IMG/VR virus record: IMGVR_UViG_3300044970_001522
Span: 22,278 to 86,277 of that record
Reading direction: 5' to 3' (one strand)
From: a virus
Taxonomy: Duplodnaviria > Heunggongvirae > Uroviricota > Caudoviricetes
Length of the DNA stretch: 64,000 bases
Part shown: positions 2,380-55,360 of the stretch, one piece after another
How the letters are laid out: each line of letters begins with the position of its first letter
How positions within the stretch are numbered: position 1 is the first letter of the stretch
The notes under the pieces: model-generated
Told to the model about the DNA's origin: nothing
What the model saw: only the letters and a program-made list of their open reading frames with translations
Database searches by the model: none
Translations under genes and position numbers: made by a program

Positions 2380-3321
2380 ATGCACGTGACCGAAACTGAA
2401 GAGTATCAGAAAACAGAGCCGATTGAGGTTTACTCGAATCGCGACGGACAAAACCTGTACAAGATTTCAAAGACCTCCTTTACGTTCAGTGCCGGTGAAA
2501 GGCAGGTTCGATTGCACGACACTCCCACGAGTTCGACTGACATTATCGTAGACGCAGACATACACAGCGGAGAAAGTTTCGCAGAACTTCTTCTGACTCT
2601 GTCGGCAATCAAAGACCTTCCTGTGCTGCGAAGTCTACAATTGGATATCCCGTACTTCCCTTATAGCCGCCAAGACCGCCAGTGCGCCGAAGGGGAAGCG
2701 TTTTCGCTAAGAACTTTTGTAAAAGCTCTCGCTCCCTACCTTGACGGGGTAGGCGATAGGGTGTACACATGGGACGTGCACAGCCACGTTGCAAATGAGC
2801 TCATTCGAACCGAAATCGGCTGCGAGTTCAACAACCTACAACCCCAACTGTTTCTCCAGAAGTTCAAAGACCGGGGGCAAGAGTTTAGTGCTAAGACAAT
2901 TGTGATTGCTCCGGATAAAGGTGCAGTCGAAAGAGCAACCCTCGTTCAACAAGCACTGGGACTCCACTCTGTAGTGTACGCTACGAAAGTTCGCAACCCC
3001 AAAGACGGGCAAATCCTAAGGACGGAAGTTCCAGAAGACGTCAGTTACAAGGGCAAAAACCTTCTGATTGTAGACGACATCTGCGACGGTGGTCGCACCT
3101 TTATCGAACTCGCCAAGGTGCTACGTCAGTTCGACCCGTCTCGAATTGACCTTTATGTCACCCATGGAATTTTCTCTAAGGGTTTTGAGGTGTTTGGGGA
3201 CTTGATTGACAACTTTTATGTTGCGAACTTACTACCAAACAGATCCTTCTACAAAGAGCTTCCCTCGAACTTGACCCACCTTCGCACCGAAAACTACCCC
3301 ACCCCACGCAACCAACCATGA
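2380..3321 (+). CDS. ribose-phosphate pyrophosphokinase (Prs) homolog; candidate ADPR-PP/PRPP synthetase
   Basis: Prs motifs DIPYFPYSRQDRQ (cf. PYFGYARQDR) and PRPP-binding loop NLLIVDDICDGGRTF; ATG 2380 follows promoter cassette (the track ORF starting at 2107 overlaps upstream gene and promoter). Confidence 0.6.
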   Translation: MHVTETEEYQKTEPIEVYSNRDGQNLYKISKTSFTFSAGERQVRLHDTPTSSTDIIVDADIHSGESFAELLLTLSAIKDLPVLRSLQLDIPYFPYSRQDRQCAEGEAFSLRTFVKALAPYLDGVGDRVYTWDVHSHVANELIRTEIGCEFNNLQPQLFLQKFKDRGQEFSAKTIVIAPDKGAVERATLVQQALGLHSVVYATKVRNPKDGQILRTEVPEDVSYKGKNLLIVDDICDGGRTFIELAKVLRQFDPSRIDLYVTHGIFSKGFEVFGDLIDNFYVANLLPNRSFYKELPSNLTHLRTENYPTPRNQP

Positions 3322-4832
3322 AAATTTTTGCGCCCCACGCAACCGACTTTTACAAGACGGGACACCCTTCGCAAAACCCTGAAGGCACCGAAGTAATCTA
3401 CGCCAACATGACGGCAAGGTCCGACCGTCTGGCGAACATGCCTGCTGATTTCGATCACAAGATCGTCGTGGCGAATGTCCAAGGGACAATGAAGTGGATG
3501 CTGAGGGATCTTTGGAATGAGACCTTTTTTCAGCAACCCAAGGCCAAGGTGTTGGATAAGTACAAACGGCGAATGGATTCATCCCTCGGCGAAGGTGTCG
3601 TAGGAACGGACCACATTGCTGAGCTTCACGACATGGGTTACATGCCGCTGCATGTGAAGGCACTACCCGAGGGCAGCCGTGTTAACATCGGAGTGCCGTT
3701 TCTGACGGCGCAAAACACACACAATGAGTTTAAGTGGCTGGCCCCGTGGTTAACCAACTATGTCGAAACCGCCAAGTCGTCTGAGCTGTGGAAGGCCATC
3801 AACGTGGCAACCATCGCCTACGAGTTTCGCCGTCTTCTCGACCACTACGCTGAAACCACAGGGAGTAATCCGCAGTTTGTTGACTTTCAGGGGCACGACT
3901 TCTCCGCTCGCGGAGTCGGAGGCATTCACGATGCCGCTGCGCACCAAATCGGCCACCTTTTTTCCTTCAAGGGCACGGACACAATCCTTTCCATTGATTA
4001 TTTGGAGGATTACTACGATTGCGGTTCCAATTTCATTGGGGGTAGTATTCCCGCTACGGAACACAGTGTGACCTGCCTTGGCGGTCAAAGAAACGAATTA
4101 GAGACAATTCGTCGAATTATTACAAAAGTATACCCAACTGGGCCGGTCAGTGTAGTTTTTGACACTTGGAACTACTGGGATGCACTGACTGTTATTGCAC
4201 CCGCACTTAAGGAAGACATCTTAAATCGTCGTCCGAATTCTCAGGGCATCGCTAAGGTCGTATTCCGTCCCGACAGTGGTGACCCTGAGAAAATCATCTG
4301 CGGTGACGCTGACGCTGAGCCAGGTAGCCGAGAGTACAAAGGTTCGCTTGAGCTTTTATGGGAGGTCTTCGGAGGAACGGTAAACGAGAAGGGTTTCAAG
4401 GTACTGAACCCTCGAGTTGGCTTAATTTACGGCGACTCAATCACTCTTCCACGGGCCAGGGCCATCCTGGAGCACATGAGGCAGCTTGGGTGGGCGTCCG
4501 AAAACATCGTGTTCGGTATCGGTTCCTACACCTATCAATACCATACACGGGACACGTTCGGTATCGCATACAAAACGACCTGGGGGCAAATTAACGGTGT
4601 CGCCGTTGAAACTATGAAGGACCCCATTACGGATCGCGGCACGAAAAAGTCGGCGTTGGGTCTACTGCGAGTTGAAAAGGATGGGGAGAACTTTGTTCTT
4701 CATCAACAGCAGACTCGTGAGCAAGAGCAGCGAGGCGAGCTTCGCACCGTGTTCTTAAACAGCGTGGTTTACGGGGAGGATGTAAACTCACTGCCTAACA
4801 TTCGTACTCGACTTCTCAACCCCGCAGCTTAG
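3318..4832 (+). CDS. nicotinamide phosphoribosyltransferase (NAMPT/NadV-like)
   Basis: 504 aa; NAMPT-like stretches (GTDTILSIDY, FGIGSYTYQYHTRDT, MKDPITDRGTKKSALGLLRV); ATGA-coupled to the Prs-like gene. Confidence 0.7.
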   Translation: MKIFAPHATDFYKTGHPSQNPEGTEVIYANMTARSDRLANMPADFDHKIVVANVQGTMKWMLRDLWNETFFQQPKAKVLDKYKRRMDSSLGEGVVGTDHIAELHDMGYMPLHVKALPEGSRVNIGVPFLTAQNTHNEFKWLAPWLTNYVETAKSSELWKAINVATIAYEFRRLLDHYAETTGSNPQFVDFQGHDFSARGVGGIHDAAAHQIGHLFSFKGTDTILSIDYLEDYYDCGSNFIGGSIPATEHSVTCLGGQRNELETIRRIITKVYPTGPVSVVFDTWNYWDALTVIAPALKEDILNRRPNSQGIAKVVFRPDSGDPEKIICGDADAEPGSREYKGSLELLWEVFGGTVNEKGFKVLNPRVGLIYGDSITLPRARAILEHMRQLGWASENIVFGIGSYTYQYHTRDTFGIAYKTTWGQINGVAVETMKDPITDRGTKKSALGLLRVEKDGENFVLHQQQTREQEQRGELRTVFLNSVVYGEDVNSLPNIRTRLLNPAA

Positions 4833-4931: not shown

Positions 4932-5522
4932 ATGGACTACAAGACAATCGCATACAAGAAAACCATTCTGGTTTTAAATGCCACGTACGAACCCTTGAAC
5001 CAGACCTCGTGGCGAAGGGCTAGAGTGCTTGTATTGAAGGACAAGGCCCATGTCGTGTCCAGCCGCACCATTCGCCTAAAGACATACGTTAAGGTTCCCC
5101 AAGCCAAGATGGCAGCGGCGAAGCCCTCTCGCACCTTGATTCTAAAACGGGACAATCACACCTGCCAGTATTGCGAGTACTCCGGTCCTAAACTAACACT
5201 GGATCACGTTTTACCAAAGTCAAGAGGTGGCCAAGACACGTGGCAAAACCTTGTCACCAGCTGCCTTGAGTGCAACAATTGCAAGGACAATCGCACCCCG
5301 GAAGAGTGGGCGGTTGCCCTGAAGAAGGTGTTTTCGAAGGAAACCACGAATGTTTCTTCACTGCCTTTTAGCTGGGATAGCTTTCAGATTGGGATGATGG
5401 AAACCCGCGTCACTCGACGTGGCACCACTCTCGCCTCAAAACCGAAGGCACCTTACAGCAAAATGTCCGTTACAATCAGCACGGCAGAAGTAGAAGAGTG
5501 GCGTGAGTACGTCTATGTCTGA
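4932..5522 (+). CDS. HNH endonuclease
   Basis: CQYCEYSGPKLTLDHVLPKSRGG...NLVTSCLECNNCK HNH/zinc-finger motif. Confidence 0.65.
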   Translation: MDYKTIAYKKTILVLNATYEPLNQTSWRRARVLVLKDKAHVVSSRTIRLKTYVKVPQAKMAAAKPSRTLILKRDNHTCQYCEYSGPKLTLDHVLPKSRGGQDTWQNLVTSCLECNNCKDNRTPEEWAVALKKVFSKETTNVSSLPFSWDSFQIGMMETRVTRRGTTLASKPKAPYSKMSVTISTAEVEEWREYVYV

Positions 5523-11332: not shown

Positions 11333-12442
11333 ATGGAACTAAACCTGCGCCACTTTCTAATCGACTGGTTAAACTACCGGGTCGAGACTGCTTTTGAAGC
11401 ACTTGCCGAGCACGACATTCGTGTCGCTCGCGACGAACGTTACCCTGCTCTTTTTAACTTGAAGTATGGCAGTGTAATGGCGGACAAGTCACTACCGATT
11501 GTTCGTGCCTGCCGTGGTGCCGTAGTCGAACTTGTTGACGATGGCACGGGCTCCCCGTACTTTCGGCTGGTTGCGTACGCCTTCGACCGCTTTTTCAACG
11601 TTGGCGAGGGGTATGCCGCTGAGATTGATTGGTCCACTGCCCGTGTAGCTGAGAAGTATGACGGGTCTCTGATCAAGTTGTTCAACTATAAAGGAGAGTG
11701 GTTGGTATCAACATCGGGTTCAGTCGCTGGTTCTTCGGAAGTCGGGACCACGGGTCGCTCCTTCTCCGAGTTGTTTTGGCACGTTTTTAATGAAGTTGAA
11801 TATGACCGGGCTGACCTCGACCCTTATTTTGTCTACGTCTACGAATTGTGCCACAAAGACAACAAAATTGTTGTAGACTACGAGACTCCCCTTTTACCTC
11901 TCTTAACTGTACGTAGCGTAATAGATGACCTGAACGAAAAGGATCTCAAGTACTTTGAGAACCGTTTCAATATCGCTCAGACCTACGACCTGCGCTCACA
12001 TGAAGCTGTAACCCAGTTTGTAAACGACTCTTCTCGTGGTACCGCTGAAGGCGTAATTATTGTCGACGGAAACGGAAACCGCCAGAAAGACAAGTCCAAC
12101 GTCTATTGTCAGTTGCACAGGGTTAAAGGAAACGGCGAACCGGATTTCTCCGAGCTTTTCCTGAACGACGACTTGGAAGAGTTTCTGCTTCACTTTCCCG
12201 AGTATCGTGGGGGTTTTGACGTTCACCTGCGTTCCATCGAAGTGATGGAGAGTGCGGTGAGCGAGAACATGAGGGCTCACAACCATCTTAACCAGAAGGA
12301 TTTCGCTCAAGCCGTACTTGCCGAGTCAAAAGAACTTTCTGGAGCATGCTTTGCGATTCGATCCGGCAAAGTCGGATCCTTTGCAGAGTGGCTCGAAGGT
12401 TTAACCCCAAAAAAGCTCGACGTTTTGCTTGGGATTGCCTGA
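11333..12442 (+). CDS. RNA ligase (Rnl1-like nucleotidyltransferase)
   Basis: motif I AEKYDGSLIKLF (KxDGS adenylyl-lysine motif as in T4 Rnl1 KEDGSL). Confidence 0.55.
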   Translation: MELNLRHFLIDWLNYRVETAFEALAEHDIRVARDERYPALFNLKYGSVMADKSLPIVRACRGAVVELVDDGTGSPYFRLVAYAFDRFFNVGEGYAAEIDWSTARVAEKYDGSLIKLFNYKGEWLVSTSGSVAGSSEVGTTGRSFSELFWHVFNEVEYDRADLDPYFVYVYELCHKDNKIVVDYETPLLPLLTVRSVIDDLNEKDLKYFENRFNIAQTYDLRSHEAVTQFVNDSSRGTAEGVIIVDGNGNRQKDKSNVYCQLHRVKGNGEPDFSELFLNDDLEEFLLHFPEYRGGFDVHLRSIEVMESAVSENMRAHNHLNQKDFAQAVLAESKELSGACFAIRSGKVGSFAEWLEGLTPKKLDVLLGIA

Positions 12443-14557: not shown

Positions 14558-14911
14558 GTGTCAAAAATCAAAGTTGTAAACAAGTACCACTTGGGGCGAG
14601 AGACGAAGCCCCCCGAGGGTGTTGTACGCCGAGCAATTCACCGTGGAACTGCCCTTGGTAATCCGCTGCCGATGAAGGACTCTAGCCAGGTCGAGAGAGA
14701 CCGCGTCTGCGATGGTTACGAAGAGTGGTTGCCTCCAAGGCTACTTCAGAAAGGTGCCGAACTTGCGCAGTTTCAAGAGTTGCTCGCGATTGTTCAAGAT
14801 CCGAGCGTGAAGTCCCTGGAGCTAATTTGCTTTTGTGCGCCAAAGCGTTGTCACGGAGACACTGTGAAGAGACTACTTGAGCTTTCCTCTGCCCCCTCTG
14901 CATGGTCCTGA
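14558..14911 (+). CDS. DUF4326-like protein (GNP...CxCxPxxCHGD motif)
   Basis: HRGTALGNPLPM and ELICFCAPKRCHGDTV match the DUF4326 signature; a GTG start is assumed just after the upstream stop, so the start is uncertain. Confidence 0.4.
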   Translation: MSKIKVVNKYHLGRETKPPEGVVRRAIHRGTALGNPLPMKDSSQVERDRVCDGYEEWLPPRLLQKGAELAQFQELLAIVQDPSVKSLELICFCAPKRCHGDTVKRLLELSSAPSAWS

Positions 14912-22966: not shown

Positions 22967-23524
22967 ATGACTGAGGCTAAAGGGGCAATGAAAGTGTACA
23001 CAGGAATTGGGAGTCGAGAGACACCTGGTCCGATCCTGGCACTTATGGGCCGAATTTCGGCAAGGATGGACCGTCTAGGACTCACACTGCGCTCTGGTGG
23101 TGCTGACGGGGCTGACTCAGCTTTTGAGGAATACTCTACGAGAAAGGAGATATTTCTCCCGTACAACGGCTTTAATGGAAGGCACCACGATGGCGTATCC
23201 TACTTTGATTACCTTTTGTGCCCAGGGCGAGAACTAGCTCAAGAAAGCGTGGAGCAGTTTCATCCCGCACCCTCTCGGCTCTTTGATAAGGGGCGAAAGT
23301 TAATGGCTAGGAACGCGATGCAAGTCCTAGGGAGAGACTGCAAGAGCCCAACGGACGTGGTAGTCTGCTGGACAAAAAACGGCAAGGACGTCGGTGGAAC
23401 CTCACAGGCGATTCGCATCGCCAGGTTTCACAACATTTCCGTCCTTAACCTGGGTAACCCGGCCACAGAGACCTATTTCACTGCTTTCACAGACGATCCC
23501 GATTCGCCTTTTGTACTTCCTTAG
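22967..23524 (+). CDS. DprA/SLOG-like Rossmann-fold protein
   Basis: YTGIGSRETP...GLTLRSGGADGADSAFEE (GGAxGxD motif of the DprA/LOG-like SLOG superfamily). Confidence 0.4.
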   Translation: MTEAKGAMKVYTGIGSRETPGPILALMGRISARMDRLGLTLRSGGADGADSAFEEYSTRKEIFLPYNGFNGRHHDGVSYFDYLLCPGRELAQESVEQFHPAPSRLFDKGRKLMARNAMQVLGRDCKSPTDVVVCWTKNGKDVGGTSQAIRIARFHNISVLNLGNPATETYFTAFTDDPDSPFVLP

Positions 23525-28871: not shown

Positions 28872-29381
28872 ATGAGTACACTTCATCGGGCCAACGGGGA
28901 CTTGTTGTCAATGGCTCGCAAGGGTCAGTTTGACATAATTGTCCACGGCGCCAATTGTTTTAATAAGATGGCTTCAGGCATCGCGGGGCAAATTAGCCGT
29001 GAGCACCCTGAAGCAGCGAACGTTGACCTTTCCACTCGGGCAGGGGACCGGGGCAAACTCGGTCGTTTTACCATGGCACAGGTTCAAGGGAGCGGTAACC
29101 ATACTTTTCACATTGTCAACGCATATACTCAGTACTCTTACGGAAGGGGCAAAGACATTTTCGAGTATGACTTTTTCCGAGACTTTCTCAAAAGTTTTCA
29201 AACTTTTTTGAGGAGCGGCGCCATGGCTGCGCCACTAGACAGGAAGTTTGCGGTAGGACTCCCATACATCGGGTGCGGTCTCGCTGGCGGTAACGAAGAC
29301 ACGATAGTAAAAATGCTTGAAAGTTTCTCCCTGTCCTGCCACGATATTGCGGACGTCACTCTCGTACGGTACGTGCGATGA
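28872..29381 (+). CDS. macro domain protein (ADP-ribose binding/hydrolase)
   Basis: IVHGANCFNKMASGIAGQI ... VGLPYIGCGLAGGN macro-domain signatures. Confidence 0.55.
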   Translation: MSTLHRANGDLLSMARKGQFDIIVHGANCFNKMASGIAGQISREHPEAANVDLSTRAGDRGKLGRFTMAQVQGSGNHTFHIVNAYTQYSYGRGKDIFEYDFFRDFLKSFQTFLRSGAMAAPLDRKFAVGLPYIGCGLAGGNEDTIVKMLESFSLSCHDIADVTLVRYVR

Positions 29382-31615: not shown

Positions 31616-32434
31616 ATGTCACTCGCAAAAATTGGTATCGGCGTTGGTGCCGGTGCTCTCCTTCTCGCCCTCACAGCTGGTCAGTTCACTACGATCAACA
31701 CCGGTGAAAACGGGCTCTATGTCGGTTTCGACGGCCAAGTGAAAAACGAGGTTCTGACACCAGGCATTAAGTACGACGGGTTCGGATCCATTAAGGTGTT
31801 CAACACCCGAAAGATCACGGTAACTGCAAACGACCTTCGCCCGAAGACCAAGGACAACACCATCATGAAAGAGATGGATGTTACTGTAACATACAGCATC
31901 AACCCTAACTCCCTTTACGAGTTCTTCACCAACTACGATCTGACTAATCACGGGATTGCCGAAAATGGTCAGCTTCAACTAATGTCCAGCTACATTTCCA
32001 GGCTGATTACATCCGCCGTAAATCAATCTGTCGATGAGTTCCCCGCACTAGCCGTAAACAGCAGCCTGGAACAGATTCAAGACACAATCAAAACCAACCT
32101 GTCCGAAGCTCTCCGAAAGAACGGCCTTGATGGTAAAATAACCGTCGACTCCATCATCGTAGGCAAAGCTGACTTACCAGACGAATTGGTGGCGTCGGTG
32201 AATCGTGTAGTTGCCGCCCAATCTGGTCTAAAAGAGCAGCAAGTTAAGACTGAAACGGCTCAACTTAAGGCCGAGGAAAACAAGGCACTGGCGTCCACAG
32301 TGACTTCGCAGTCTCTTGAGTACCAACGTCTTGAGGTTCTCCGTGAAGCCATGAAAAACGGCAGTATTCAGAAGATTCTGATTAACGGTGCCAACGTGCT
32401 CTCCCTATCCGAGGGTGTTTTTAACACGAAGTGA
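31616..32434 (+). CDS. SPFH/band-7 (prohibitin-like) membrane protein
   Basis: N-terminal TM segment then band-7-like core; A/Q-rich coiled C-terminus. Confidence 0.45.
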   Translation: MSLAKIGIGVGAGALLLALTAGQFTTINTGENGLYVGFDGQVKNEVLTPGIKYDGFGSIKVFNTRKITVTANDLRPKTKDNTIMKEMDVTVTYSINPNSLYEFFTNYDLTNHGIAENGQLQLMSSYISRLITSAVNQSVDEFPALAVNSSLEQIQDTIKTNLSEALRKNGLDGKITVDSIIVGKADLPDELVASVNRVVAAQSGLKEQQVKTETAQLKAEENKALASTVTSQSLEYQRLEVLREAMKNGSIQKILINGANVLSLSEGVFNTK

Positions 32435-33861: not shown

Positions 33862-35346
33862 ATGACAACGCCATCCTTTTTAAACGCACTCGAAAACGAG
33901 TTTAACCAAACCATCACCGCTAACGGTGCAAAGGCATACAAGTCCACCGAGTCTAAGTGCCTGGACCTCTTTGGAAAGATTGCAGCTTGCCGTGACAACA
34001 TCAGCGAAGCAACTCGCCTATTCAATCTTGCTTATGCCGAAAACCCTGAGACCGCAACTCGAATCTTGTTTTGGGCACGCGACATTCGTGGGGGCCAGGG
34101 AGAGCGAAAGATCTTTCGAGAAGTTTTTAAGGAACTCGTCCGCAATGATGCTGCAATTGGTGCCAGGCTAGTTAGCCTGATTCCACAGTACGGTCGCTGG
34201 GATGATGTGGTAGCCCTCGACGGTACCTTAGTTTGGGGCATCGCACTCGAAGCAATTAAGGCACAACTGAACGCCGACCTAAATACGGAAGTTGGAAAGT
34301 CAGTGTCACTTCTGGCAAAGTGGCTGCCTTCCATTAACGCTTCCAGCCAGGACTCTAAGAGGATTGGCCGAAAAATTGCCGAAGCAATGGGTTGGACCGA
34401 GAGACAGTACCGCAAGGCACTGACTGCCCTCAGGACCCAAGTCAAAATTGTTGAGCAGCCAATGTGTGCCCGTGAGTGGGAAAGCATTGACTATAGCAAG
34501 TTGCCTTCTCGGGCCGGATTCATGTATCGTAAAGCCTTTGCAAAGCGCGACGGCAACCGTTACCAATCCTACCTTGACTCAGTAGAAAAAGGTGAGGCAA
34601 AAATCAATGCCGGTACGATCTACCCGTATGAGATTGTTCACAAGTACCTTTACGGGGGCGATAGGAGTGACCAAACCCTGAACCTAATGTGGGAGGCTCT
34701 ACCCAACTACATGGAGGGAGAGCAGCTAAACGGCCTGGTAATTGCCGACGTCTCAGGATCAATGGGAAATAACGGCGGCATGCCCATGGCGGTTTCAATC
34801 TCGCTGGCGATGTACATCGCTGAGCGTAACACCGGGGCATGGAAGGATAAGTTCCTAACCTTCTCCGGAAGTCCGCAGTTGCAGTCGGTTACAGGGAGAA
34901 ACGTTGCTGAGCGTGTTCGTAACCTTAGTCAGGCCGACTGGGGTGTGAATACAGACCTGCAAGCAGTCTTCAATCTTGTGTTGGCTACCGCAACGAGGAA
35001 CCATATTCCTGAGGGGGAAATGCCGCGCAAGCTCATCATTGTCTCAGACATGCAGTTTGATTCCTGCTGCAGAAACAACTCAGTGACAAACTTTGAGGCG
35101 GTGCGAATCAAGTATGCTCAAGCAGGGTATTCCTTGCCGGAACTTGTCTTCTGGAATGTTAGCTCTAGCGGCAACGTACCTGTGAAAATGCATGATACGG
35201 GGACTTGCCTGGTCTCCGGATGCAGCCCTTCAATCCTGAAAGCTGTGCTTACTGGCGGGGTAATTACGCCTGTAGGGGTTATGCGTGACGCTGTTTACAC
35301 TGAAAGGTACGACGCTGTCGGTGCCGTATTTGCTGAAGGAGCATGA
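33862..35346 (+). CDS. vWA-domain protein with N-terminal helical domain (possible Ro60/TROVE-like or DUF2828-like)
   Basis: MIDAS motif VIADVSGSMGNNGG (DxSxS) at about 60% of the length, preceded by ~290 aa of predicted helical sequence, which is Ro60-like domain order. Confidence 0.45.
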   Translation: MTTPSFLNALENEFNQTITANGAKAYKSTESKCLDLFGKIAACRDNISEATRLFNLAYAENPETATRILFWARDIRGGQGERKIFREVFKELVRNDAAIGARLVSLIPQYGRWDDVVALDGTLVWGIALEAIKAQLNADLNTEVGKSVSLLAKWLPSINASSQDSKRIGRKIAEAMGWTERQYRKALTALRTQVKIVEQPMCAREWESIDYSKLPSRAGFMYRKAFAKRDGNRYQSYLDSVEKGEAKINAGTIYPYEIVHKYLYGGDRSDQTLNLMWEALPNYMEGEQLNGLVIADVSGSMGNNGGMPMAVSISLAMYIAERNTGAWKDKFLTFSGSPQLQSVTGRNVAERVRNLSQADWGVNTDLQAVFNLVLATATRNHIPEGEMPRKLIIVSDMQFDSCCRNNSVTNFEAVRIKYAQAGYSLPELVFWNVSSSGNVPVKMHDTGTCLVSGCSPSILKAVLTGGVITPVGVMRDAVYTERYDAVGAVFAEGA

Positions 35347-38589: not shown

Positions 38590-39417
38590 ATGCCCGCTTT
38601 CGCCATCACCAACGACCTTAACTGGACCGTCTCCCCAAGGCCCACGGCATCGCTTAACTCCCATGGAGTCTGGGTTGCGGATCCAGACCGCAAAGCGATA
38701 CACCGAGACGACACCGACGAACGCCTCGGATATGTTTCCACCGAGTACGAGGTGGTGCAAAATGCCCAGCTGCTCGGGATGATTAACCCTATGGTTGAAG
38801 AGGGGCTTCTGGTAGTGGAAAACATGGGATACTTGGCTCACGGAGCCAAGGTGTTCGCCCAGGCGAAAATTAACCAGGAGTTTCGTGTAATTGGCGAGGA
38901 TTACAACGCATACATCACACTTCTGAATGGGCACACAGGGAACGCATCCGTAGCCATCGGCCCGGTTGCCACTCGCGTAATTTGTGGAAACACCTTTTCG
39001 ATGGCTTACTCTAACATCGGAGAAAAATTCCGCCACTCTTCCGGAGTGAACGAGCGCATTCTTGAGAGCACCGCAGTGCTTGACTTTGTGAATAGCGCCA
39101 TGAAGATGTATTCTAAAAGAGTTGAAGTCATCGCCTCGGCAACTTGCACTTCCGCCCAATTCCGTGCCTTCCTTGAGGCGACTTACAAGAAAGAAGCGGA
39201 CAAAATGCGCAATGTCAACGTTCTCAACGACCTGTTTTACAACGGCGCTGGTAACGAAGGTCGCACCTTTTACGATGCCATGAATGCGGTTACGGACTTT
39301 AGTTCCAATCGTAGTCGAAAGAGCGAGACCGGACGCTTTGGCTACGCAAACTTCGGCCAAGGCGCAACCATCAACCAGCGGGCCATGGAAGTAGCCCTTG
39401 ATATGGCTACTGTCTAA
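38590..39417 (+). CDS. DUF932-like protein (phage/plasmid-related, TIGR03299-like)
   Basis: LLNGHTGNASVAIGPVATRVICGNT resembles the conserved ...S.DGS...P.RVVCxNT core of DUF932. Confidence 0.45.
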   Translation: MPAFAITNDLNWTVSPRPTASLNSHGVWVADPDRKAIHRDDTDERLGYVSTEYEVVQNAQLLGMINPMVEEGLLVVENMGYLAHGAKVFAQAKINQEFRVIGEDYNAYITLLNGHTGNASVAIGPVATRVICGNTFSMAYSNIGEKFRHSSGVNERILESTAVLDFVNSAMKMYSKRVEVIASATCTSAQFRAFLEATYKKEADKMRNVNVLNDLFYNGAGNEGRTFYDAMNAVTDFSSNRSRKSETGRFGYANFGQGATINQRAMEVALDMATV

Positions 39418-41785: not shown

Positions 41786-41857
41786 GCCCTGGTAGCTCAG
41801 TGGAAGAGCACTGTCCTTCTAAGACACCGGTCGTGGGTTCGAATCCCTCTCAGGGCG
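41786..41857 (+). tRNA. tRNA-Arg (anticodon TCT), slightly irregular stems
   Basis: acceptor GCCCTGG/TCAGGGC, D arm GCTC-AGTGGAA-GAGC, anticodon loop CTTCTAA, T loop TTCGAAT; no encoded CCA. Confidence 0.55.
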
Positions 41858-41904
41858 TAGGTTGCCTTTGCAGCCACACTAAACAACAACAGCAACAATA
41901 CAAA

Positions 41905-42069
41905 ATGGCAAATCTTTCTCTAGTTGATCGTGCCGCACGAATTGGCGTCGAAAACCCCGACGGCGCAAAGCTCCTCCTAAGACTCAGCGAGGCAAGCACC
42001 AGCACTGAAGTTCAAAGTGCTCTAGACGAATTTGACTTGGCGGTCGGAGTTCAAACTCCCTCTGTCTGA
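41905..42069 (+). CDS. small protein sharing C-terminal motif with 42443
   Basis: TEVQSALDEFDLAVGV versus SEVQSALDELNLDVGL. Confidence 0.3.
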   Translation: MANLSLVDRAARIGVENPDGAKLLLRLSEASTSTEVQSALDEFDLAVGVQTPSV

Positions 42070-42111
42070 GCTTTACCTTGGGTTCCACCTCACACGGTGG
42101 TTCCCTATCCT

Positions 42112-42200
42112 GGGCGTGTGGTGTACGGTGCACAGGGACCATTATAAAGTCCTCTCCGGCAGATTACCGGCTAGTTAGGGTTCGACTCCCTACACGCCTA
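42112..42200 (+). tRNA. type II (long variable arm) tRNA-like gene with 9-nt anticodon loop; isotype ambiguous
   Basis: acceptor GGGCGTG/CACGCCT, T arm TAGGG-TTCGACT-CCCTA, variable stem-loop CCGG-CAGATTA-CCGG, anticodon stem GGGAC/GTCCT enclosing CATTATAAA. Confidence 0.4.
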
Positions 42201-42290
42201 CTTAGTTTCAAGTCCTCGAAAACTCGTTAAAGAACACACCCACAGGCCATATCCGGTGAACGACACAGGAGTGGCCCACCACGGTGACAA

Positions 42291-42375
42291 GGAAGAGTGG
42301 CTGAGCGGCCGAAAGCAGCAGCTTCGAACACTGTAGAGGGTTAAACCTCCGGGGGTTCAAATCCCCCCTCTTCCG
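42291..42375 (+). tRNA. tRNA-Ser (anticodon CGA), type II
   Basis: acceptor GGAAGAG/CTCTTCC; D arm GCT-GAGCGGCCGAA-AGC nearly identical to bacterial tRNA-Ser; loop TTCGAAC; variable arm GAGG-GTTAAA-CCTC; T arm GGGGG-TTCAAAT-CCCCC. Confidence 0.55.
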
Positions 42376-44401: not shown

Positions 44402-44905
44402 GTGAAAACCGCTGTAACGTTCGGGAGGTTTAACATAGGCCACCCCGGCCATGTTGAGCTAGTTAAAAAGTTGCTCACCCTTGGTTCGACCGCTAAAGTG
44501 TATGTGTCCTTAGGGAGACAGAATAACGACTGGGACCTTCGAGTTTTACTTCTGCGGACGCTGTGCCGCCAAGCGAGCATTGACCTGAGTAGGGTATCAT
44601 TTCTAAAGGCCATCGATCCCTATGCGGGGTTGTCAGATGTTCTAAAAAGCAGGAAGCCAAGCGAGGTGGTTCTCGTTCTGGGGTCTGACCAAGCTTCACT
44701 CGGATTGCAGCTTTCGCACACCTTCGGAGTCTCTTTTCATGAGAACGAACGAAGTGGTTCGAGCACGGCGCTGAGAAAGGTTTTAGACCAAGGCAAAAAC
44801 CCTGCACCTTTTCAGGGGAACAGGTACGCTTTAAAACTTGCAACACTCTTGAGAAACAATGAAAAGTTCCGAAAAGCTCAAAGAAAAGCTAAGGTGTCTG
44901 CTTAG
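44402..44905 (+). CDS. class I nucleotidyltransferase (HxGH), candidate NMN/NaMN adenylyltransferase
   Basis: FGRFNIGHPGHVELV HIGH motif; GTG start. Confidence 0.35.
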   Translation: MKTAVTFGRFNIGHPGHVELVKKLLTLGSTAKVYVSLGRQNNDWDLRVLLLRTLCRQASIDLSRVSFLKAIDPYAGLSDVLKSRKPSEVVLVLGSDQASLGLQLSHTFGVSFHENERSGSSTALRKVLDQGKNPAPFQGNRYALKLATLLRNNEKFRKAQRKAKVSA

Positions 44906-45157: not shown

Positions 45158-45631
45158 ATGGAAAACATACCCGAAGCACCCGAAGCATACGTGATGGTCG
45201 GAGCCCCTGGGTCCGGAAAGTCGACTCATGTATCAAAGCTGCTAAGTCTTCACCCAGATGCCGTTGTAATTTCCGGCGATGAAATCCGCGCTGAGCTCTA
45301 CGGAAACGCGGACATTCTAGGAAATTACGTAGAAATCCACGACCGCATGCTTGAGATTCTGGAGGAGAGTGTAGGTCGGACTATAGTTATGGATGGTACC
45401 CACTACAAGGCAGCTTACCGCAAGGAAGCAATTGCTACGCTGAACTCGTACGGTTACGATAAGGTTACTGCAGTAGTCATTGAAAAGCCCCTCACCGTTT
45501 GCCTACACCAGAATGCTTCTCGCGAGCGCAGGGTTCCGGAAGAAGTGATTGAGCGCATGCACGCCTCCTTACAAGCTTCCCTCAAGAATATCACCAACGA
45601 ACCCTTCCACCGTATTGACTTTGTATACTGA
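45158..45631 (+). CDS. P-loop polynucleotide-kinase-like protein (predicted leaderless)
   Basis: YVMVGAPGSGKST Walker A at the N-terminus as in Pnk kinase domains; ATG 7 nt after -10 TATAAT. Confidence 0.5.
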   Translation: MENIPEAPEAYVMVGAPGSGKSTHVSKLLSLHPDAVVISGDEIRAELYGNADILGNYVEIHDRMLEILEESVGRTIVMDGTHYKAAYRKEAIATLNSYGYDKVTAVVIEKPLTVCLHQNASRERRVPEEVIERMHASLQASLKNITNEPFHRIDFVY

Positions 45632-45635
45632 CGCA

Positions 45636-46364
45636 ATGATAACTTACAGCAACAAATTACATCAAGGTGACGTAGTTGCCCTGGGGGACATTCACGCGAC
45701 ATGGACTCTTTTCGAACAATTTCTGAATTGGGTGAAAGGGTCTCAAGCCACTGTCGTACTTTTAGGTGACATGGTTGATCGTGGTGGGGGTGACCTGAAA
45801 GTTTTGGAGCATACGAAAAATCTCCTCGACGATCCGGAAAGTTGGGGGCTTCAAGCCTTTTATGCCCTGATGGGGAACCACGAGAGGATGTTTCTTGATG
45901 CTTTGGAAGACCCATTCGGCAGTAGCTACGTGCTGTGGGTTCAAAACGGCGGAAACTATGACCAAGTGGGTGAAATGGAGAGGGAACATAAGGAGTGGGT
46001 TCGAAATCTACCCTTGTATATGACAATTGCGGACACTCTCTTCATTCACGCGGGGATCTACCCCGGTCACGACCCTGCAAAGCTCATTGCCGATGGAAGA
46101 GGCGAGGCACTCCTGTGGATTCGACAACCTTTCTTGACCTATGGGCCGGAGTTCGAAGGGTGGAACCCACGACTTAAGAAAGTCGTTCATGGTCACACAC
46201 CAACCAACTTCGAGGAACCACCTCAGGACCACCTCCCCGTTGTGAAGGGACAACGCGTAAATATAGATACGGGTGCGTTTATTAAGACGAAGGGTCGCCT
46301 AACCGCTTACAACGTCACTCAAAATACTTTTCACCAATTTTCACGGCAACCTCGCAAGGACTAG
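45636..46364 (+). CDS. calcineurin-like metallophosphoesterase (Pnkp-type phosphatase module candidate)
   Basis: GDIHA...GDMVDRGG...GNHE metallophosphatase motifs; immediately follows the kinase gene. Confidence 0.55.
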   Translation: MITYSNKLHQGDVVALGDIHATWTLFEQFLNWVKGSQATVVLLGDMVDRGGGDLKVLEHTKNLLDDPESWGLQAFYALMGNHERMFLDALEDPFGSSYVLWVQNGGNYDQVGEMEREHKEWVRNLPLYMTIADTLFIHAGIYPGHDPAKLIADGRGEALLWIRQPFLTYGPEFEGWNPRLKKVVHGHTPTNFEEPPQDHLPVVKGQRVNIDTGAFIKTKGRLTAYNVTQNTFHQFSRQPRKD

Positions 46365-50385: not shown

Positions 50386-51165
50386 ATGAGTTACACAGGA
50401 CAGTTAATAACCTTTGAAGGTCTTGACGGCTGCGGAAAAACAACTCAGCTTAAGGCTGTTTTCGAGTGGCTTGTTACCAGCGGTCGACTACCATGGGGAG
50501 TTAAGGTGGTTACAACTCGAGAGCCAGGATGTTTACCCGGTGTGCGAGACTTGCTTAAGAACCCTAAGGCTGCGATCACACCGAAAGCCGAACTTTTACT
50601 GCTCATGGCCGACCGGGCTCAGCACGTTGCAACAGTAATAATGCCGGAGCTAGAAAAGGGCAACTGGGTGTTATGCGACCGATTTTACGCAAGCACCTTA
50701 GCCTATCAAGGGTGGGGACGAGGTTTGGGATCTGAAGCGGTAGAGAAAGCCCACGAACTTGCCTGCGGAGTCTTGTACCCTGACTTAGAACTGTTTTTCG
50801 ACGTTCCCGTTGATGAGTCTATGAGACGGCTCTCAAGGCGAGAAAACGACGGGCTGACTGTCCGAGACAGATTTGAGCGGTCAGAACGACCTTTTTTCGA
50901 CCGTTTGCTTACAGGGTTTCAAACCCCTAACGAACAACTGGGACTGAAATGTTACCCCGTGGTTACAATCGACGGGTGTCAAACGGTTGACGAGGTTACT
51001 CAGGAATGCATACGACAAGTGTCCAAGCTTTTACCACGTGAGGAGAACTTCACGAATGTGCCACCGTGCCGAGCAAAAGATCCTGAGTTTTGGTACGACA
51101 CTTCTAAAGAAACTTACAAAGTTCGGCTTGAGCGGGAGACCTCATGGAGTCAGCCACGATCTTGA
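50386..51165 (+). CDS. tmk: thymidylate kinase
   Basis: GQLITFEGLDGCGKTTQ P-loop and Tmk-like downstream sequence; start could also be 50311. Confidence 0.65.
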   Translation: MSYTGQLITFEGLDGCGKTTQLKAVFEWLVTSGRLPWGVKVVTTREPGCLPGVRDLLKNPKAAITPKAELLLLMADRAQHVATVIMPELEKGNWVLCDRFYASTLAYQGWGRGLGSEAVEKAHELACGVLYPDLELFFDVPVDESMRRLSRRENDGLTVRDRFERSERPFFDRLLTGFQTPNEQLGLKCYPVVTIDGCQTVDEVTQECIRQVSKLLPREENFTNVPPCRAKDPEFWYDTSKETYKVRLERETSWSQPRS

Positions 51166-51571
51166 AAGACTGACGAAAAACTTTGTTAAAACTTCCACAT
51201 TTGATATGAAACCTTTTCTACACGGGAGGATACATGCCAGAAAGTACGGAGGCTCCCCAGACGACTACGCCGATATCGACGACTTTATTGACAGTAGCAA
51301 GATTGCCTTTCCAGACATTCGTCACCGGGCATTGCTTCACTCGTCGTTCGGGTGTTTTGTCGTTGAGCAGATGTTCGGTCGCACACGCACAAACTCTGCT
51401 GGAATAACTTACTCTCCCCGAGACATCGCCGAAGATCACATTATTCAAGACCTCGGGTTCATTCCCACGGTCGAAAAGTACCTAAACAACATGGTTGCAC
51501 AACCGTGGATGTCTGGCACTAACAAGTCACCCAACAAACAAACCAAATTCATTCCAATCGGAGACTAAACC

Positions 51572-52021
51572 ATGTCACAATCCCTCGACTTACTTATTCA
51601 AGAGTTTACAGAGCAACAAGAGAGATTCCAAAAGGTCGCTCAGGAGAGGCTAAAAGAGTACTTTGCTGAGTTCTGGGAAAAGAACCCTGCGATTAAGGCC
51701 GTAACGTGGTCTCAATACGCCCCGTACTTCAACGATGGGGATCCGTGTACGTTTAGCGTGCATGACCCGTACTTCACGAACGCCGAAGGAGACGATCTTG
51801 ACGACCTGACGAGCTGGGGTGAGTACGACGGTGAGAAGGATGAGGTATGGTCGGACCAGGACCCTAAGTTTGATGGCGTGAACGTTGAGTCCACACACTC
51901 CCTGGCGAAGCTACTCACATCAAGTGTTATGGAGCCGATCATGAAGATCATGTTTGGTTCGGACAACGTCATAGTTGCGACTCGTGCCGGATTTAGTGTA
52001 GACCAAGCTGACCACGACTGA
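51572..52021 (+). CDS. hypothetical acidic protein
   Basis: ORF. Confidence 0.3.
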   Translation: MSQSLDLLIQEFTEQQERFQKVAQERLKEYFAEFWEKNPAIKAVTWSQYAPYFNDGDPCTFSVHDPYFTNAEGDDLDDLTSWGEYDGEKDEVWSDQDPKFDGVNVESTHSLAKLLTSSVMEPIMKIMFGSDNVIVATRAGFSVDQADHD

Positions 52022-52036
52022 CTTGGTGAAGGGGTT

Positions 52037-52101
52037 GAACGGTTAACCCTTACCTTAGGGCGGTTAACCCCCTTTATTCTGCCCTATAGAAACGGTATAG
52101 T
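52037..52101 (+). promoter_or_regulatory. double cassette TTTATT-N17-TATAGT
   Basis: GAACGGTTAACCC then GGGCGGTTAACCCCC. Confidence 0.5.
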
Positions 52102-52125
52102 TAAAGAGTCAATCCGACAACCAAA

Positions 52126-52656
52126 ATGCTTACCCAAACTGCTCAGCCCCTCGATAAGCAGCACGCTGGACAAATTCTCCTTCGTGCTACGCGATTCCTT
52201 ACTGCACCCACCCTAAGCCCCCGACCCGACGGGTCTGTGAGGGATGTAGCACTCGACACCCGCTGGCTGGGGCGAGACCTCGTGCGTGAAGTCTTTCGGG
52301 GCCGAACTGCTGACGAAACGGATGGAAAGTACGTGGACGTTGTTACGGACAACGGTAAAAGACTGCGAGTGTTCACTCGCGTCATTTCACGTAGAGCCGA
52401 TAACGCACTGGTCGCTTGTGCGAACTCTGCTGAGATAAGCCCTATCAACTTCGCATCTGAAGCAGATAAGCCAGACTCAGTCTTGCTCGTTGCTGTCAAT
52501 CCTCAGCGAAACACTGTTGACGTCTTTGACTTCCCCCTTGAAGACCGAGAAGGTAAGAAAGTGACCAGGGAGAACTTAGCCGTGTCCTGGTCTGTGAAAA
52601 AACAGAATTACGGTAAGCACCAAGCAAAGCTCACGTACAGCTACAAAGCTAACTGA
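52126..52656 (+). CDS. hypothetical protein
   Basis: caaaATG after promoter 52058-52101. Confidence 0.35.
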   Translation: MLTQTAQPLDKQHAGQILLRATRFLTAPTLSPRPDGSVRDVALDTRWLGRDLVREVFRGRTADETDGKYVDVVTDNGKRLRVFTRVISRRADNALVACANSAEISPINFASEADKPDSVLLVAVNPQRNTVDVFDFPLEDREGKKVTRENLAVSWSVKKQNYGKHQAKLTYSYKAN

Positions 52657-52693
52657 GATCTGCTAGTCCCTAGCAGCACTTTCACCGGGCAAG

Positions 52694-52760
52694 CGACGGT
52701 TAACCGAACCTTTCGAGGACGGTTTCCCCGCTTGCCTTTTCAATCGTAAGACGCTATAGT
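52694..52760 (+). promoter_or_regulatory. double cassette TTGCCT-N17-TATAGT, leaderless ATG at +7
   Basis: CGACGGTTAACCG then GGACGGTTTCCCCGC. Confidence 0.55.
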
Positions 52761-52766
52761 AGGTGT

Positions 52767-53372
52767 ATGGAACTAAAATCGACCCTTTCTGAGTCGTTCT
52801 TTCACCGGTTCTGCCCGGATCCCACGGTGATGTACGATCTTGGAGAGATTTACGCAGAATTTAACGCCCGCTACTTCAACGGGGACTTACCAGTTCTTCC
52901 CTGTAAGACTCGGACAGACGAAAACGGAGAAACTTGGTCGCGATACGACACCCTAAAGTGGGATGGTCGCATGGGTCGCAGAATTCTTGGCACATACAAA
53001 ACGTCTGCACGACGTGGGTTCGGAACAATTCGCCTCTCTCGCGTAATTGCAGGTGACCCTGTAAAAACAAGAAGCATTCTCTTGCACGAGATGCTTCACA
53101 AGTACCTTGATCTTGAGTGTCGAGACGACGGCATTAAGGGCCACGGTGAAAACTTCGTGAAGGAGGCAAAGAGAATCAACGAACTTTGTGAAAGAACTGG
53201 TGTTAAGCACCGCATTTACTTCTACAAAGACGAGATTACACAGAGTCAACCATTCGTCATACCTGAGCTTTTGGACGACAAAATCCACTGCAGCACAGAT
53301 CTAGACATTGCCCTAAACATGCAGTCTGTGATGAGGGCCGCGTTCTCACAAAAATTCGAGTACTTTCAGTGA
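52767..53372 (+). CDS. SprT-like zinc metalloprotease-domain protein (predicted leaderless)
   Basis: ILLHEMLHKY HExxH motif; ATG 7 nt after -10. Confidence 0.4.
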   Translation: MELKSTLSESFFHRFCPDPTVMYDLGEIYAEFNARYFNGDLPVLPCKTRTDENGETWSRYDTLKWDGRMGRRILGTYKTSARRGFGTIRLSRVIAGDPVKTRSILLHEMLHKYLDLECRDDGIKGHGENFVKEAKRINELCERTGVKHRIYFYKDEITQSQPFVIPELLDDKIHCSTDLDIALNMQSVMRAAFSQKFEYFQ

Positions 53373-53396
53373 GACCTTCGGGTCTCTTTTTATTTA
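53371..53396 (+). terminator. rho-independent terminator
   Basis: AGACC-TTCG-GGTCT hairpin followed by CTTTTTATTT. Confidence 0.55.
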
Positions 53397-53412
53397 AACC
53401 AAAACATGTACT

Positions 53413-53754
53413 ATGAGACCTAAACAAGAACAATTGAACGAATGGGGAGAACGTTACTTTTGTGAAGACCGATCTAAAACCGAACTTTTTGTGCAAGAGG
53501 TGGCAGAGTGGGTAGTCAAGGAAATTGCACAGGAGTTTGACAGGAAAGAACAAGCAGGTGCAAAAGGTTACGGGCCGAGTCTTCCCGCTAAGCTAGTACG
53601 ACAGTTTGGTTCGCCATCTGGCCCAACACTCAAGCAGCTTTCCTTGCTTGCTCTAAACGAACTTGTGCCCCTCGAGGACAGGGAGAAAAGTTCATACAAG
53701 CTGCTGTTAACCGTTATTTCAACCTTGCCCGAGACACCAACCAATACTCTTTAA
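53413..53754 (+). CDS. hypothetical protein
   Basis: ORF. Confidence 0.3.
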   Translation: MRPKQEQLNEWGERYFCEDRSKTELFVQEVAEWVVKEIAQEFDRKEQAGAKGYGPSLPAKLVRQFGSPSGPTLKQLSLLALNELVPLEDREKSSYKLLLTVISTLPETPTNTL

Positions 53755-53872
53755 GAGTGTGTGATTGATGTTAATTAGTGACACCTTTTACTAGGGTCAA
53801 CTCTTTTGTTTAGTCGCAAGAAAAAGAGCCAGTTAACATCGTTGGGTAATAATTCCTCCCGATCAACCAAAG

Positions 53873-55360
53873 ATGACATTTGTGACAGAAAACTTAACGA
53901 AGAGTTCTAAAGCCGCTTCAACCGGAAATGAAAAATGCAACGATAACTGTTCTGTAAGTGAAGCCGTTGTCTGTGATTTAAGCTCTCGCCAAGAGCCCCG
54001 CCGAATCGACCTCGACAAGCTATACGAGTGTGACCCGAAAGACTACATTGGCTATTTCGCCGACGAAACCTCTTACGACAACCTTATTCAAGAAGACTGC
54101 GACGTTTATGTGGGCGGAGTGAAAGTTGTTGCCTTTCGTAAGGCACTTTTTCCGAAGCTGCGCGATGGTTCGAAAGGTAGCCCGGAAACTTGGAAATACT
54201 TCCGCTGGGCAGCAAGAGACTTGTACTCAGACCAACGAGGCCTAGTTGCTGGTAGAGAACTAACTACCCAACTCGAGATAAGGGTAACCAACGGTATTCT
54301 AAACTTCTTCAAGAAGGCGATGGCCGGTCAAGTCACTGACTTGGAAGAGGCACTGAAAATTGCTTCTCTCTCCCCCGACATGTCAAAGCTCACTGTCCGA
54401 GTGAATGATGTTAAAAAGGACTTCCCAGAAATTGAGAAAGCTTTAGAATCTATCGAGAAGGAACTTCGCAAGAAAACGCTGAGCGAAGAAAGAAAGGTAG
54501 AGCTGAAGGAAGCGAAGGGTAGAGAACTTGCGAAGTGGTTCCCGACGTGGCTATCCAAGACTTGGAGTGTATCTAAGGACAAGGTTTCTGAGGCGAAACG
54601 TGCCGACGACAGGTATGTGGGAAAACAATACCGTTCAAACAAGTGCTATTCCAACGTGATTGGTGCTTTTGATAGGGGTGCACGTAACCCTTACGGTCGT
54701 TTGACCGCAACAACTGTAAAAGACTATGAGGGGTTCGTAAGCCACACGGATATTTATCAGACAGCTTGTTCCGCACTCAAAGAGACCCTAAACACTCCGG
54801 AAAACCCTCGGTGGGACCGCCTTCACGAACGGTTCAGTAACGTGAAAGACCCGCACTATAACCTCTTCGGTACGGTGTTCACTGCCCTTACGTTAAACTG
54901 GAACTTCCGTTGTGCGATGCACTACGACGGTAATAACTGCGAAGGTGGTATTGCCGTTCTTACTGCAATTACTCAAGGGGAATATGACGGCCATTACCTT
55001 GTGTTCCCTGAAATTCGTTGCGCTTTCGACCTTCGTGATGGGGACTTTATTGCCGGTGACAATCAGGGACTGATTCACGGTAACACTGCAATGATTCCGA
55101 AGACGCCTGACGCTGAACGAGTTTCGTTCGTTTTCTATTCACGAGAGCGCATGACCGCTCTTGACGATATGGAGTGTGAGGAGTGCCGCCGAGATTTCAT
55201 GCGATACGCAGCAGACAATCACAAGGAGTATGGAAAGGGTCACAAGACCTGGAATGGTGTTTGGAGCGGAATGTGGAAATCACCGGAATGGATGACGTAT
55301 AAAGCCGAACACGGCTTAGAACGTTGCTCAAATACTAACTATTGGGGCACCGAGAATTAA
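53873..55360 (+). CDS. TET/JBP-family 2OG-Fe(II) dioxygenase-like protein
   Basis: AMHYDG (HxD) ... 52 aa ... LIHGNT (distal His) ... RVSF 14 aa later (2OG Arg), spacing as in JBP/TET catalytic cores; ~300-aa N-terminal extension. Confidence 0.4.
   Translation: MTFVTENLTKSSKAASTGNEKCNDNCSVSEAVVCDLSSRQEPRRIDLDKLYECDPKDYIGYFADETSYDNLIQEDCDVYVGGVKVVAFRKALFPKLRDGSKGSPETWKYFRWAARDLYSDQRGLVAGRELTTQLEIRVTNGILNFFKKAMAGQVTDLEEALKIASLSPDMSKLTVRVNDVKKDFPEIEKALESIEKELRKKTLSEERKVELKEAKGRELAKWFPTWLSKTWSVSKDKVSEAKRADDRYVGKQYRSNKCYSNVIGAFDRGARNPYGRLTATTVKDYEGFVSHTDIYQTACSALKETLNTPENPRWDRLHERFSNVKDPHYNLFGTVFTALTLNWNFRCAMHYDGNNCEGGIAVLTAITQGEYDGHYLVFPEIRCAFDLRDGDFIAGDNQGLIHGNTAMIPKTPDAERVSFVFYSRERMTALDDMECEECRRDFMRYAADNHKEYGKGHKTWNGVWSGMWKSPEWMTYKAEHGLERCSNTNYWGTEN

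Follow-up and report, generated by a model that had tools for sequence, protein, structure and literature searches.

Organization and Conservation of the Gene Pair

Two overlapping open reading frames (ORFs) occupy positions 2380 to 4832 of a 64,000-nucleotide stretch of IMG/VR record IMGVR_UViG_3300044970_001522 (Caudoviricetes), hereafter called the window. The first (2380..3321, + strand, ATG start, 313 aa) encodes a homologue of ribose-phosphate pyrophosphokinase (Prs) and is annotated here as an adps homologue, i.e., a putative ADP-ribose (ADPR) pyrophosphokinase of the PRPS fold, on the basis of Pfam, TIGR01251, its PP-loop and a neighbour-joining (NJ) tree. The second (3318..4832, + strand, ATG start, 504 aa) encodes a homologue of NAMPT and is annotated as a namat homologue, i.e., a putative nicotinamide ADP-ribose transferase, on the basis of its match to PDB entry 9W5X, its SCH/SCL clamp and an NJ tree. 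The end of the former and the start of the latter share an ATGA (3318..3321, + strand), as can be read from the sequence, so that the stop/start coupling described in an earlier note on this DNA is confirmed.

That note had also likened the pair to NAD+ reconstitution pathway 1 (NARP1), in which a Prs-like enzyme, Adps, pyrophosphorylates ADPR, while a NAMPT-like enzyme, Namat, joins the resulting ADPR-pyrophosphate (ADPR-PP) to nicotinamide to give NAD+ (Osterman et al. 2024). NARP1 was reported from 859 phages (4.3%), and a Namat gene adjoins 97% of the Adps-clade genes (Osterman et al. 2024). Among the Adps proteins, those of SPbetaL1 and ICP1 have been tested by biochemistry and those of Bas63 and FADO by genetics.

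The pairing seen in the window is widespread. Among 80 IMG/VR loci carrying a relative of the window Adps homologue, 79 also carry a Namat-type gene, and in all but one of these 79 it follows the Prs-like gene (62 directly abutting and 16 with an insert of 0.4–2.5 kb); the abutting arrangement of the window recurs in its close relatives (L101–L103). Bacterial genomes give the same picture, with Adps-type and Namat-type genes adjacent and co-oriented, the Adps-type gene directly upstream, in 78 of the best 80 loci. Such a pairing is far beyond what chance would produce.

The Prs-Like Protein Groups with Adps

The Prs-like protein is composed of the Pfam domains Pribosyltran_N and Pribosyltran, and the motif LDIPYFPYSRQDR and the loop LLIVDDICDGGRTF that the earlier note had pointed out are both present. 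Its TIGR01251 score (123.6 bits) lies among those of validated Adps (96.5–138.5 bits), about 300 bits below that of E. coli Prs (422.7 bits). The window protein and Bas63 Adps (138.5 bits) both pass the broad TIGR01251 cut-off of 113 bits, while the window protein falls short of the cut-offs of the NCBIfam Prs equivalog and subfamily models (118 bits on the best specific model vs. a cut-off of 296); on its own best specific model, NF002320, E. coli Prs obtains 531.9 bits. A sequence search of PDB, in a copy that lacks the Adps structures deposited by Liu et al. (23BM, 27FN, 23CA), returned only canonical Prs, at about 1e-16.

Structural work on Adps has identified three rules, namely a remodelled PP-loop donor site (Cys215–Ser220 in ICP1), a catalytic hairpin lysine and the loss of helices alpha11–alpha12 of PRPS (Liu et al. 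2026). The window PP-loop, DDICDGGRTF (D232, D233, I, C235, D236, G, G, R, T, F), agrees with the Bas63 Adps loop at every residue, where E. coli Prs reads DDMIDTGGTL, and the same decapeptide recurs in 110 of the 120 nearest homologues in the database and in 68 of 80 IMG/VR relatives. The hairpin lysine is kept (K203, aligned with ICP1 Lys185). As judged from the alignment, the C-terminal alpha11–alpha12 helices are absent, the window chain stopping some 12 proline-rich residues past the last shared strand and E. coli Prs running 24 helical residues beyond that end. Moreover, the flexible loop KVRNPKDGQI fits the Adps pattern K-x-R-[ND]-x-x-[TD]-G-x-I (the Bas63 counterpart being KVRNLKTGEI), the segment THGIFSKG is common to the window protein and to the Bas63 and ICP1 Adps, and residues H134, D179, D232, D233 and D236 are conserved. 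Two ICP1 adenine-contact residues also have their equivalents (F36 for Phe18 and R97 for Arg87), but they do not discriminate between the families, because E. coli Prs carries both.

In a tree of 24 sequences (NJ, 300 bootstrap replicates; distance-based, small and not maximum-likelihood), the window protein and the Adps of SPbetaL1, FADO, Bas63, ICP1 and AG74 form a single clade supported by a bootstrap proportion of 100% against five canonical Prs (E. coli, Acinetobacter, an Enterococcus contig, a cyanobacterial-type copy and a megaphage copy). The Adps clade is separated from canonical Prs by a long branch, and the window protein is nested within it rather than basal to it. Both the tree and the TIGR01251 score place the protein on the Adps side. 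The statement of the earlier note that sequence alone cannot separate the use of ribose-5-phosphate from that of ADPR was too cautious, because the published family signatures do separate Adps from Prs.

The NAMPT-Like Protein Groups with Namat

The NAMPT-like protein is a full-length member of the NAPRTase/NAMPT family (PF04095, 5e-34; NF006629, 494.8 bits; PHROG 448, 2.5e-176). Its best solved relative is the Namat of SPbetaL1 (9W5X/9W5W, E = 1.3e-130), human NAMPT being matched at 1.7e-55. PDB entry 9KE8, considered as an NARP2-type phage Nampt, was dropped, as it comes from no phage in the collection and its best match is SPbetaL1 (68%); the NARP2-type comparators retained were the Nampts of KVP40-like PC-Liy1, P-KP2 and phiM7.

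Namat selects the adenine moiety through a "selectivity clamp" made of the SCH motif (GS-X-Phi-X-Phi-X-Phi-TRD, where X is aromatic) and of an Arg, Lys or Tyr in the SCL loop (Lan et al. 2026). The window protein has GSYTYQYHTRD at the SCH site, to be compared with GSFTYQYNTRD in SPbetaL1, with GGGLLQ..RD in KVP40-type phage Nampts, GGALLQKVDRD in Xanthomonas and GGGLLQKLTRD in the human enzyme. In the SCL loop, which is five residues longer than in SPbetaL1, Arg37 of the window protein aligns with SPbetaL1 Arg40. The window protein keeps every one of the 20 positions at which SPbetaL1 Namat contacts NAD: 18 residues are identical, and the other two, A362->S and F392->Y, are substitutions with precedents among Namats. 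NARP2-type proteins deviate from SPbetaL1 Namat at positions 190, 391, 392 and 396. The Nampt-like core is identical as well (D, Y, F, R, D, A, R, D, G and D at SPbetaL1 positions 13, 15, 189, 192, 215, 242, 306, 308, 360 and 361, respectively), and the catalytic histidine, which lies in PATEHSV, is invariant.

The tree of 12 Namat and Nampt sequences (NJ, 500 bootstrap replicates) places the window protein in the NARP1-type Namat clade, apart from the KVP40-type Nampts, with a bootstrap proportion of 100%. A score gap is also visible in the tblastn ranking, where NARP1-type proteins score at least 281 bits and NARP2-type proteins at most 177 bits.

A Probable NARP1 Operon in an Uncultured Jumbo Phage

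The window pair resembles the NARP1 systems of SPbetaL1, Bas63, FADO and ICP1 in being a two-gene operon with the order Adps then Namat, in the membership of both proteins in the same clades, and in sharing the PP-loop (identical to that of Bas63), the catalytic lysine, the lost C-terminal helices of Prs, the SCH motif, the SCL arginine and the NAD contacts. It differs from the tested systems in its ATGA overlap, in about 30 additional N-terminal residues of Adps, in a cysteine at the position of ICP1 Phe92, in the conserved HNH gene directly downstream and in its carrier, an uncultured lineage of about 277 kb. Given the observed gene structure, family and clade membership, specificity-determining residues and synteny, the NARP1-like reading put forward earlier holds, and the genes at 2380–3321 and 3318–4832 very probably constitute a NARP1 operon, with the predicted enzyme activities and anti-defence role. 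The substrates of the two enzymes, the expression of their genes in infected cells and a protective effect against defences that deplete NAD+ are inferred.

In the proposed pathway, a host NADase effector of the TIR, SIR2, SEFIR or DSR type would split NAD+ into ADPR and nicotinamide. The predicted Adps (2380–3321) would then transfer the beta,gamma-pyrophosphate of ATP to ADPR, at the 1'' hydroxyl of its distal ribose, yielding ADPR-PP and AMP. Finally, the predicted Namat (3318–4832) would let nicotinamide displace the pyrophosphate of ADPR-PP, giving NAD+ and PPi with neither a nicotinamide mononucleotide (NMN) intermediate nor an NMN adenylyltransferase (NMNAT) step.

Several observations weigh against this reading. 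The third adenine contact of ICP1 Adps, Phe92, is replaced by a cysteine in the window protein; this contact is not family-wide, however, because Bas63 has a methionine there, Acinetobacter a cysteine and SPbetaL1 a gap. Identity to the validated enzymes is modest (27–34% for Adps and 40–46% for Namat), and both proteins have their nearest relatives not in known phages but in prs2–nadV pairs of bacterial chromosomes. PHROG 619 had to be rejected as a means of telling Adps from Prs, E. coli Prs scoring 193 bits on it and the window protein 222. Lastly, Namats keep a residual activity in vitro that converts phosphoribosyl pyrophosphate (PRPP) to NMN, so that some synthesis of NMN is possible.

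As for the genome that carries the pair, nearly all genes of the window are small and co-oriented, and three are tRNA genes. No close DNA relative was found among 50,697 deposited phage records, while the first 14 kb are 92–95% identical to three IMG/VR viral contigs (67, 88 and 277 kb) and synteny extends to more distantly related metagenomic contigs (105 and 201 kb). With IMG/VR relatives of up to 277 kb and these syntenic contigs, the window is a piece of an uncultured and previously undescribed jumbo-phage lineage. Concerning its host, the window encodes a small protein with a type IV pilin-like N-terminus (FTLLELV) and a signal-peptide protein whose match to outer membrane protein (OMP) beta-barrels is weak (221–466 and 589–1155), genes for SLH-domain and PstS-like phosphate-binding proteins lie just upstream of adps in two relatives (L004 and L006), and the best phage match of the macro-domain protein discussed below is in Synechococcus phages B3 and B23. 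Altogether, the pilin-like and OMP-like proteins, the SLH and PstS neighbours and the Synechococcus-phage match may point to a host that is a cyanobacterium or some other aquatic diderm.

An Unlinked Poa1p-Like Macro Protein

Some phages extend NARP1 with a third enzyme, Adpp, which acts against aRES defence and whose closest known relative was reported to be Poa1p, an ADPR-1''-phosphate phosphatase. In such systems (NARP1-AP; Adps–Adpp–Namat in Vibrio phage Gary), the macro gene is, by definition, at most two genes away from NARP1. The window phage encodes a homologue of these operon-embedded macro proteins (28872..29381, + strand, 169 aa), identified through PHROG 335 and an AlphaFold2 (AF2) model searched with Foldseek, which might work in trans as an Adpp-like ADPR-1''-phosphate phosphatase. 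The macro domain announced at this place by the earlier note is upheld by PHROG 335 ("phosphatase", 2.1e-38) and by the fold, Pfam Macro alone giving E = 0.049. The model is confident (pLDDT 93), and its top PDB match is yeast Poa1p (6lft/6lfs/6lfr; E = 7e-9, TM 0.72–0.75).

It is conceivable, though we hold it only tentatively, that the phage possesses a dispersed form of NARP1-AP, in which the macro protein would dephosphorylate ADPR-1''-phosphate made by aRES and feed ADPR to an Adps/Namat pair encoded 24 kb away. Besides its Poa1p-like fold, the protein shares 32% identity (2e-17) with the product of the macro gene that Vibrio phage AG74 carries between its adps and namat genes, an architecture that is also that of the validated Adpp of phage Gary, and 45% identity with the product of a macro gene located three genes downstream of namat in a related viral contig (L104). 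Nevertheless, no macro gene lies within two genes of the window pair, the one at hand being 24 kb downstream, outside the operon and well beyond the published distance. Furthermore, Poa1p-like macro genes are found in 2,728 phage records, compared to 1,490 for Adps, and most of them are not tied to NARP1, since they are commoner than Adps. The window also holds a set of RNA-repair genes (RNA ligase, kinase and phosphatases), a pathway that the macro protein could equally serve. The putative link between this protein and the NAD+ pathway is a weak one.

A broader scheme would add to the Adps and Namat core not only an unlinked phosphatase against aRES but also the divergent HxGH nucleotidyltransferase encoded at 44402–44905, acting as a minimal NMNAT that would turn into NAD+ the NMN made by Namat through its residual activity on PRPP. 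We judge such a dispersed, multi-branch NAD+ repair unlikely. If true, its NMNAT branch would make the phage a hybrid of NARP1 and NARP2, the latter combining a distinct Nampt clade with an NMNAT, and no phage having both pathways was found by Osterman et al. (2024).

Bacterial Relatives and a Possible Metabolic Role

Chromosomal pairs of Adps-type and Namat-type genes gave at least 589 matches, in Acinetobacter, Marinomonas, Achromobacter, Acetobacteraceae, Planctomycetota and others; they were found with an alignment query, a single-protein query of bacterial genomes having returned none. Identity to these pairs is 50–60% for Namat and about 36% for Adps. They share with the window the gene order, the DDICDGG loop and the Namat motif, the latter being present in all of the best 80 bacterial loci, 70 of which also have an NrtR-like gene within 4 kb. 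The window copy differs in being phage-borne and devoid of NrtR, whereas the bacterial copies are chromosomal and usually stand beside it. Two records of the phage collection look like bacterial chromosome instead. "Acinetobacter phage MD-2021a" (L011, CAKLQF020000015.1) has prsA_2, nadV and NrtR (NF050029, 471 bits), its contigs also holding fepC, AraC and efflux genes, and the region of "Microcystis phage MaAM05" (L014, MW495066.1) has dinB, a canonical prs and trpG.

Bacterial prs–nadV operons are derepressed by ADPR, which releases NrtR from DNA, and the presence of a dedicated "Prs" in them was left unexplained (Rodionov et al. 2008). The only bacterial pair tested, from Paenibacillus foliorum, performs NARP1 chemistry (Lan et al. 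2026), a result that supports this chemistry for the window pair while leaving room for a role other than defence. The wide occurrence of such pairs, usually beside NrtR, would fit with the "second Prs" of NrtR operons being an ADPR pyrophosphokinase.

The window pair might then carry out NARP1 chemistry for a metabolic purpose, recycling the ADPR released by NAD consumers of the phage or the host and keeping NAD+ high during a long jumbo-phage infection. The chromosomal nature of the closest relatives, with the adjacent pair and the neighbouring NrtR-like gene in most of them, the response of NrtR to ADPR and the housekeeping function in bacteria allowed for by Osterman et al. all speak for such a role. 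Against it, every phage NARP1 tested to date (SPbetaL1, Bas63, FADO, ICP1 and Gary) counters NAD+-depleting defence, the phage copy has no NrtR, and no gene for an ADP-ribosyltransferase, Tpt1, a sirtuin or a Nudix protein was seen among the about 45 window ORFs scanned. We regard a metabolic purpose as improbable, and counter-defence as the expected role of the NARP1 pair.

The HxGH Nucleotidyltransferase and the Rival Reading of NMN Salvage

The earlier note had offered classical salvage as the alternative to NARP1, in the manner of NARP2 or of the KVP40 NadV/NatV system. The Prs homologue would make PRPP out of ribose-5-phosphate, the NAMPT homologue would make NMN, and the product of 44402–44905 would adenylate NMN to NAD+. 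That this gene encodes an HxGH nucleotidyltransferase is borne out by its sequence and predicted structure. The protein (167 aa, GTG start) displays GRFNIGHPGH and SSTxxR, and its AF2 model is a confident class-I nucleotidyltransferase fold (pLDDT 95). Its family comprises about 157 database members, some of them labelled NMNAT by JGI.

An assignment as NMNAT is nonetheless not supported. In Pfam and NCBIfam, the protein obtains only a generic cytidylyltransferase match near the cut-off, and no match to the NCBIfam NMNAT models, on which the phiM7 NMNAT scores 77–334 bits. A phmmer search of PDB gave nothing significant. When the profile of the family was compared with PDB, glycerol-3-phosphate cytidylyltransferase (GCT) came out best (1.6e-5), NMNATs following at 0.02–0.06 through the N-terminal motif, and Foldseek ranked PPAT, a putative NaMNAT, NadM and GCT (all at approximately 1e-5 to 3e-4) and an archaeal NMNAT about equally. 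Conversely, phiM7 gp210, a NadM-type NMNAT/Nudix, matched only a 22-residue HxGH segment when searched against the whole window.

NARP2 (NadV Nampt and NatV NMNAT/Nudix in KVP40) has in common with the window pair that NAD+ would be rebuilt in infected cells with an enzyme of the NAMPT fold. However, the window NAMPT homologue falls outside the KVP40-type clade and lacks the GGGLLQ loop, and no NadM-type NMNAT/Nudix is detectable within the 64-kb window of this genome of about 277 kb. An NARP2-like reading of the window is therefore not supported, because nothing assigns the 44402 protein to NMNAT.

Classical salvage is, in our view, highly improbable, despite the HxGH motifs and confident fold of the 44402 protein, the NadM and archaeal NMNAT among its Foldseek matches, the NMNAT label given by JGI to some of its homologues, the occurrence of homologues on contigs of 104,851 and 280,768 bp (sizes matching those of the carriers of Adps relatives) and the residual activity of Namats on PRPP. 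Indeed, both enzymes of the pair belong to NARP1 clades, outside those of Prs and KVP40 Nampt, with full bootstrap support, the PP-loop is of the remodelled donor-site type rather than the DTGGT phosphate loop of Prs, and purified SPbetaL1 Adps yields no product from the Prs substrate (Osterman et al. 2024). To this are added the preference of the 44402 profile for GCT, without an NCBIfam NMNAT match, the near tie between families in Foldseek and the 40 kb that separate the 44402 gene from the operon.

Other Genes of the Window

The predicted NARP1 operon is flanked by an ORF of 88 aa, by small ORFs and, immediately after namat, by a gene for an HNH endonuclease (4932–5522). Adps, Namat and HNH follow one another in this order in the syntenic 105-kb and 201-kb relatives, too. 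The HNH endonuclease keeps its position in relatives, with an identity of 76–100% vs. 56–63% for the Adps of the same loci, which suggests either a recently spreading homing endonuclease or a strong constraint. A scan for promoters and terminators between 1500 and 5700 gave counts equal to those expected from shuffled sequences, so that the TTTACC-17-TATAGT found at 2329–2357 is no evidence of a promoter.

A likely DNA hypermodification cluster extends from 50386 to 61741. It includes a thymidylate kinase (50386–51165), a TET/JBP 2OG-Fe dioxygenase (53873–55360), an R2K ATP-grasp protein (56595–57356), a TET-associated glycosyltransferase (57445–58272), a weakly matched MobA-like NTP transferase (58697–59410) and the nucleoside 2-deoxyribosyltransferase-like protein (61196–61741) that the earlier note had recognised, here matched by Nuc_deoxyri_tr2 (9e-32). 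The RNA-repair-type gene set is spread over 11333–12442, 45158–46364 and 41786–42375, and comprises a T4 Rnl1-like RNA ligase, an AAA_33/tRNA-ligase-kinase-like protein (45158–45631) and a NinI-like phosphatase (45636–46364); tRNA genes (Arg-TCT, Ile-TAT and Ser-CGA) occur near it.

Other recognisable products are an SPFH/Band 7 protein (31616–32434), a 494-aa protein with DUF2828 and DUF7788 (33862–35346), a DUF932 protein (38590–39417), a DUF4326 protein (14558–14911; 5e-11, as annotated before) and a DprA-like protein (22967–23524). For the latter, previously described as DprA/SLOG-like, the DprA likeness is retained by PHROG 768 only (5.8e-55), the Pfam match staying at E = 0.07. None of these five genes could be connected with the NAD pathway. 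Neither Tpt1, ART, Nudix, NadR nor PnuC was found among 20 further window ORFs searched, and the NARP3 genes (a PnuC-like transporter and an NadR-like enzyme) were not seen among the about 45 window ORFs scanned.

Implications

The adps/namat pair is a well-supported but ordinary addition to a known and common counter-defence pathway, present in about 4% of phages. Its mechanism is already known, and what is gained is a better annotation, together with a possible case of an unlinked Adpp. Its only features out of the ordinary are the Poa1p-like protein encoded far from the operon, the HxGH nucleotidyltransferase and the close relationship to NrtR-regulated operons of bacteria. In terms of method, the signatures published in 2026, i.e., the PP-loop and C-terminal truncation of Adps and the adenine clamp of Namat, suffice to tell the enzymes of NARP1 from their housekeeping counterparts, Prs and Nampt. 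In terms of relationships, the nearest kin of the window pair turn out to be the long-puzzling NrtR-regulated prs–nadV operons of bacteria. For the phages themselves, the pair would extend NAD+-reconstitution counter-defence to an uncultured lineage of about 277 kb that has no close deposited relative.

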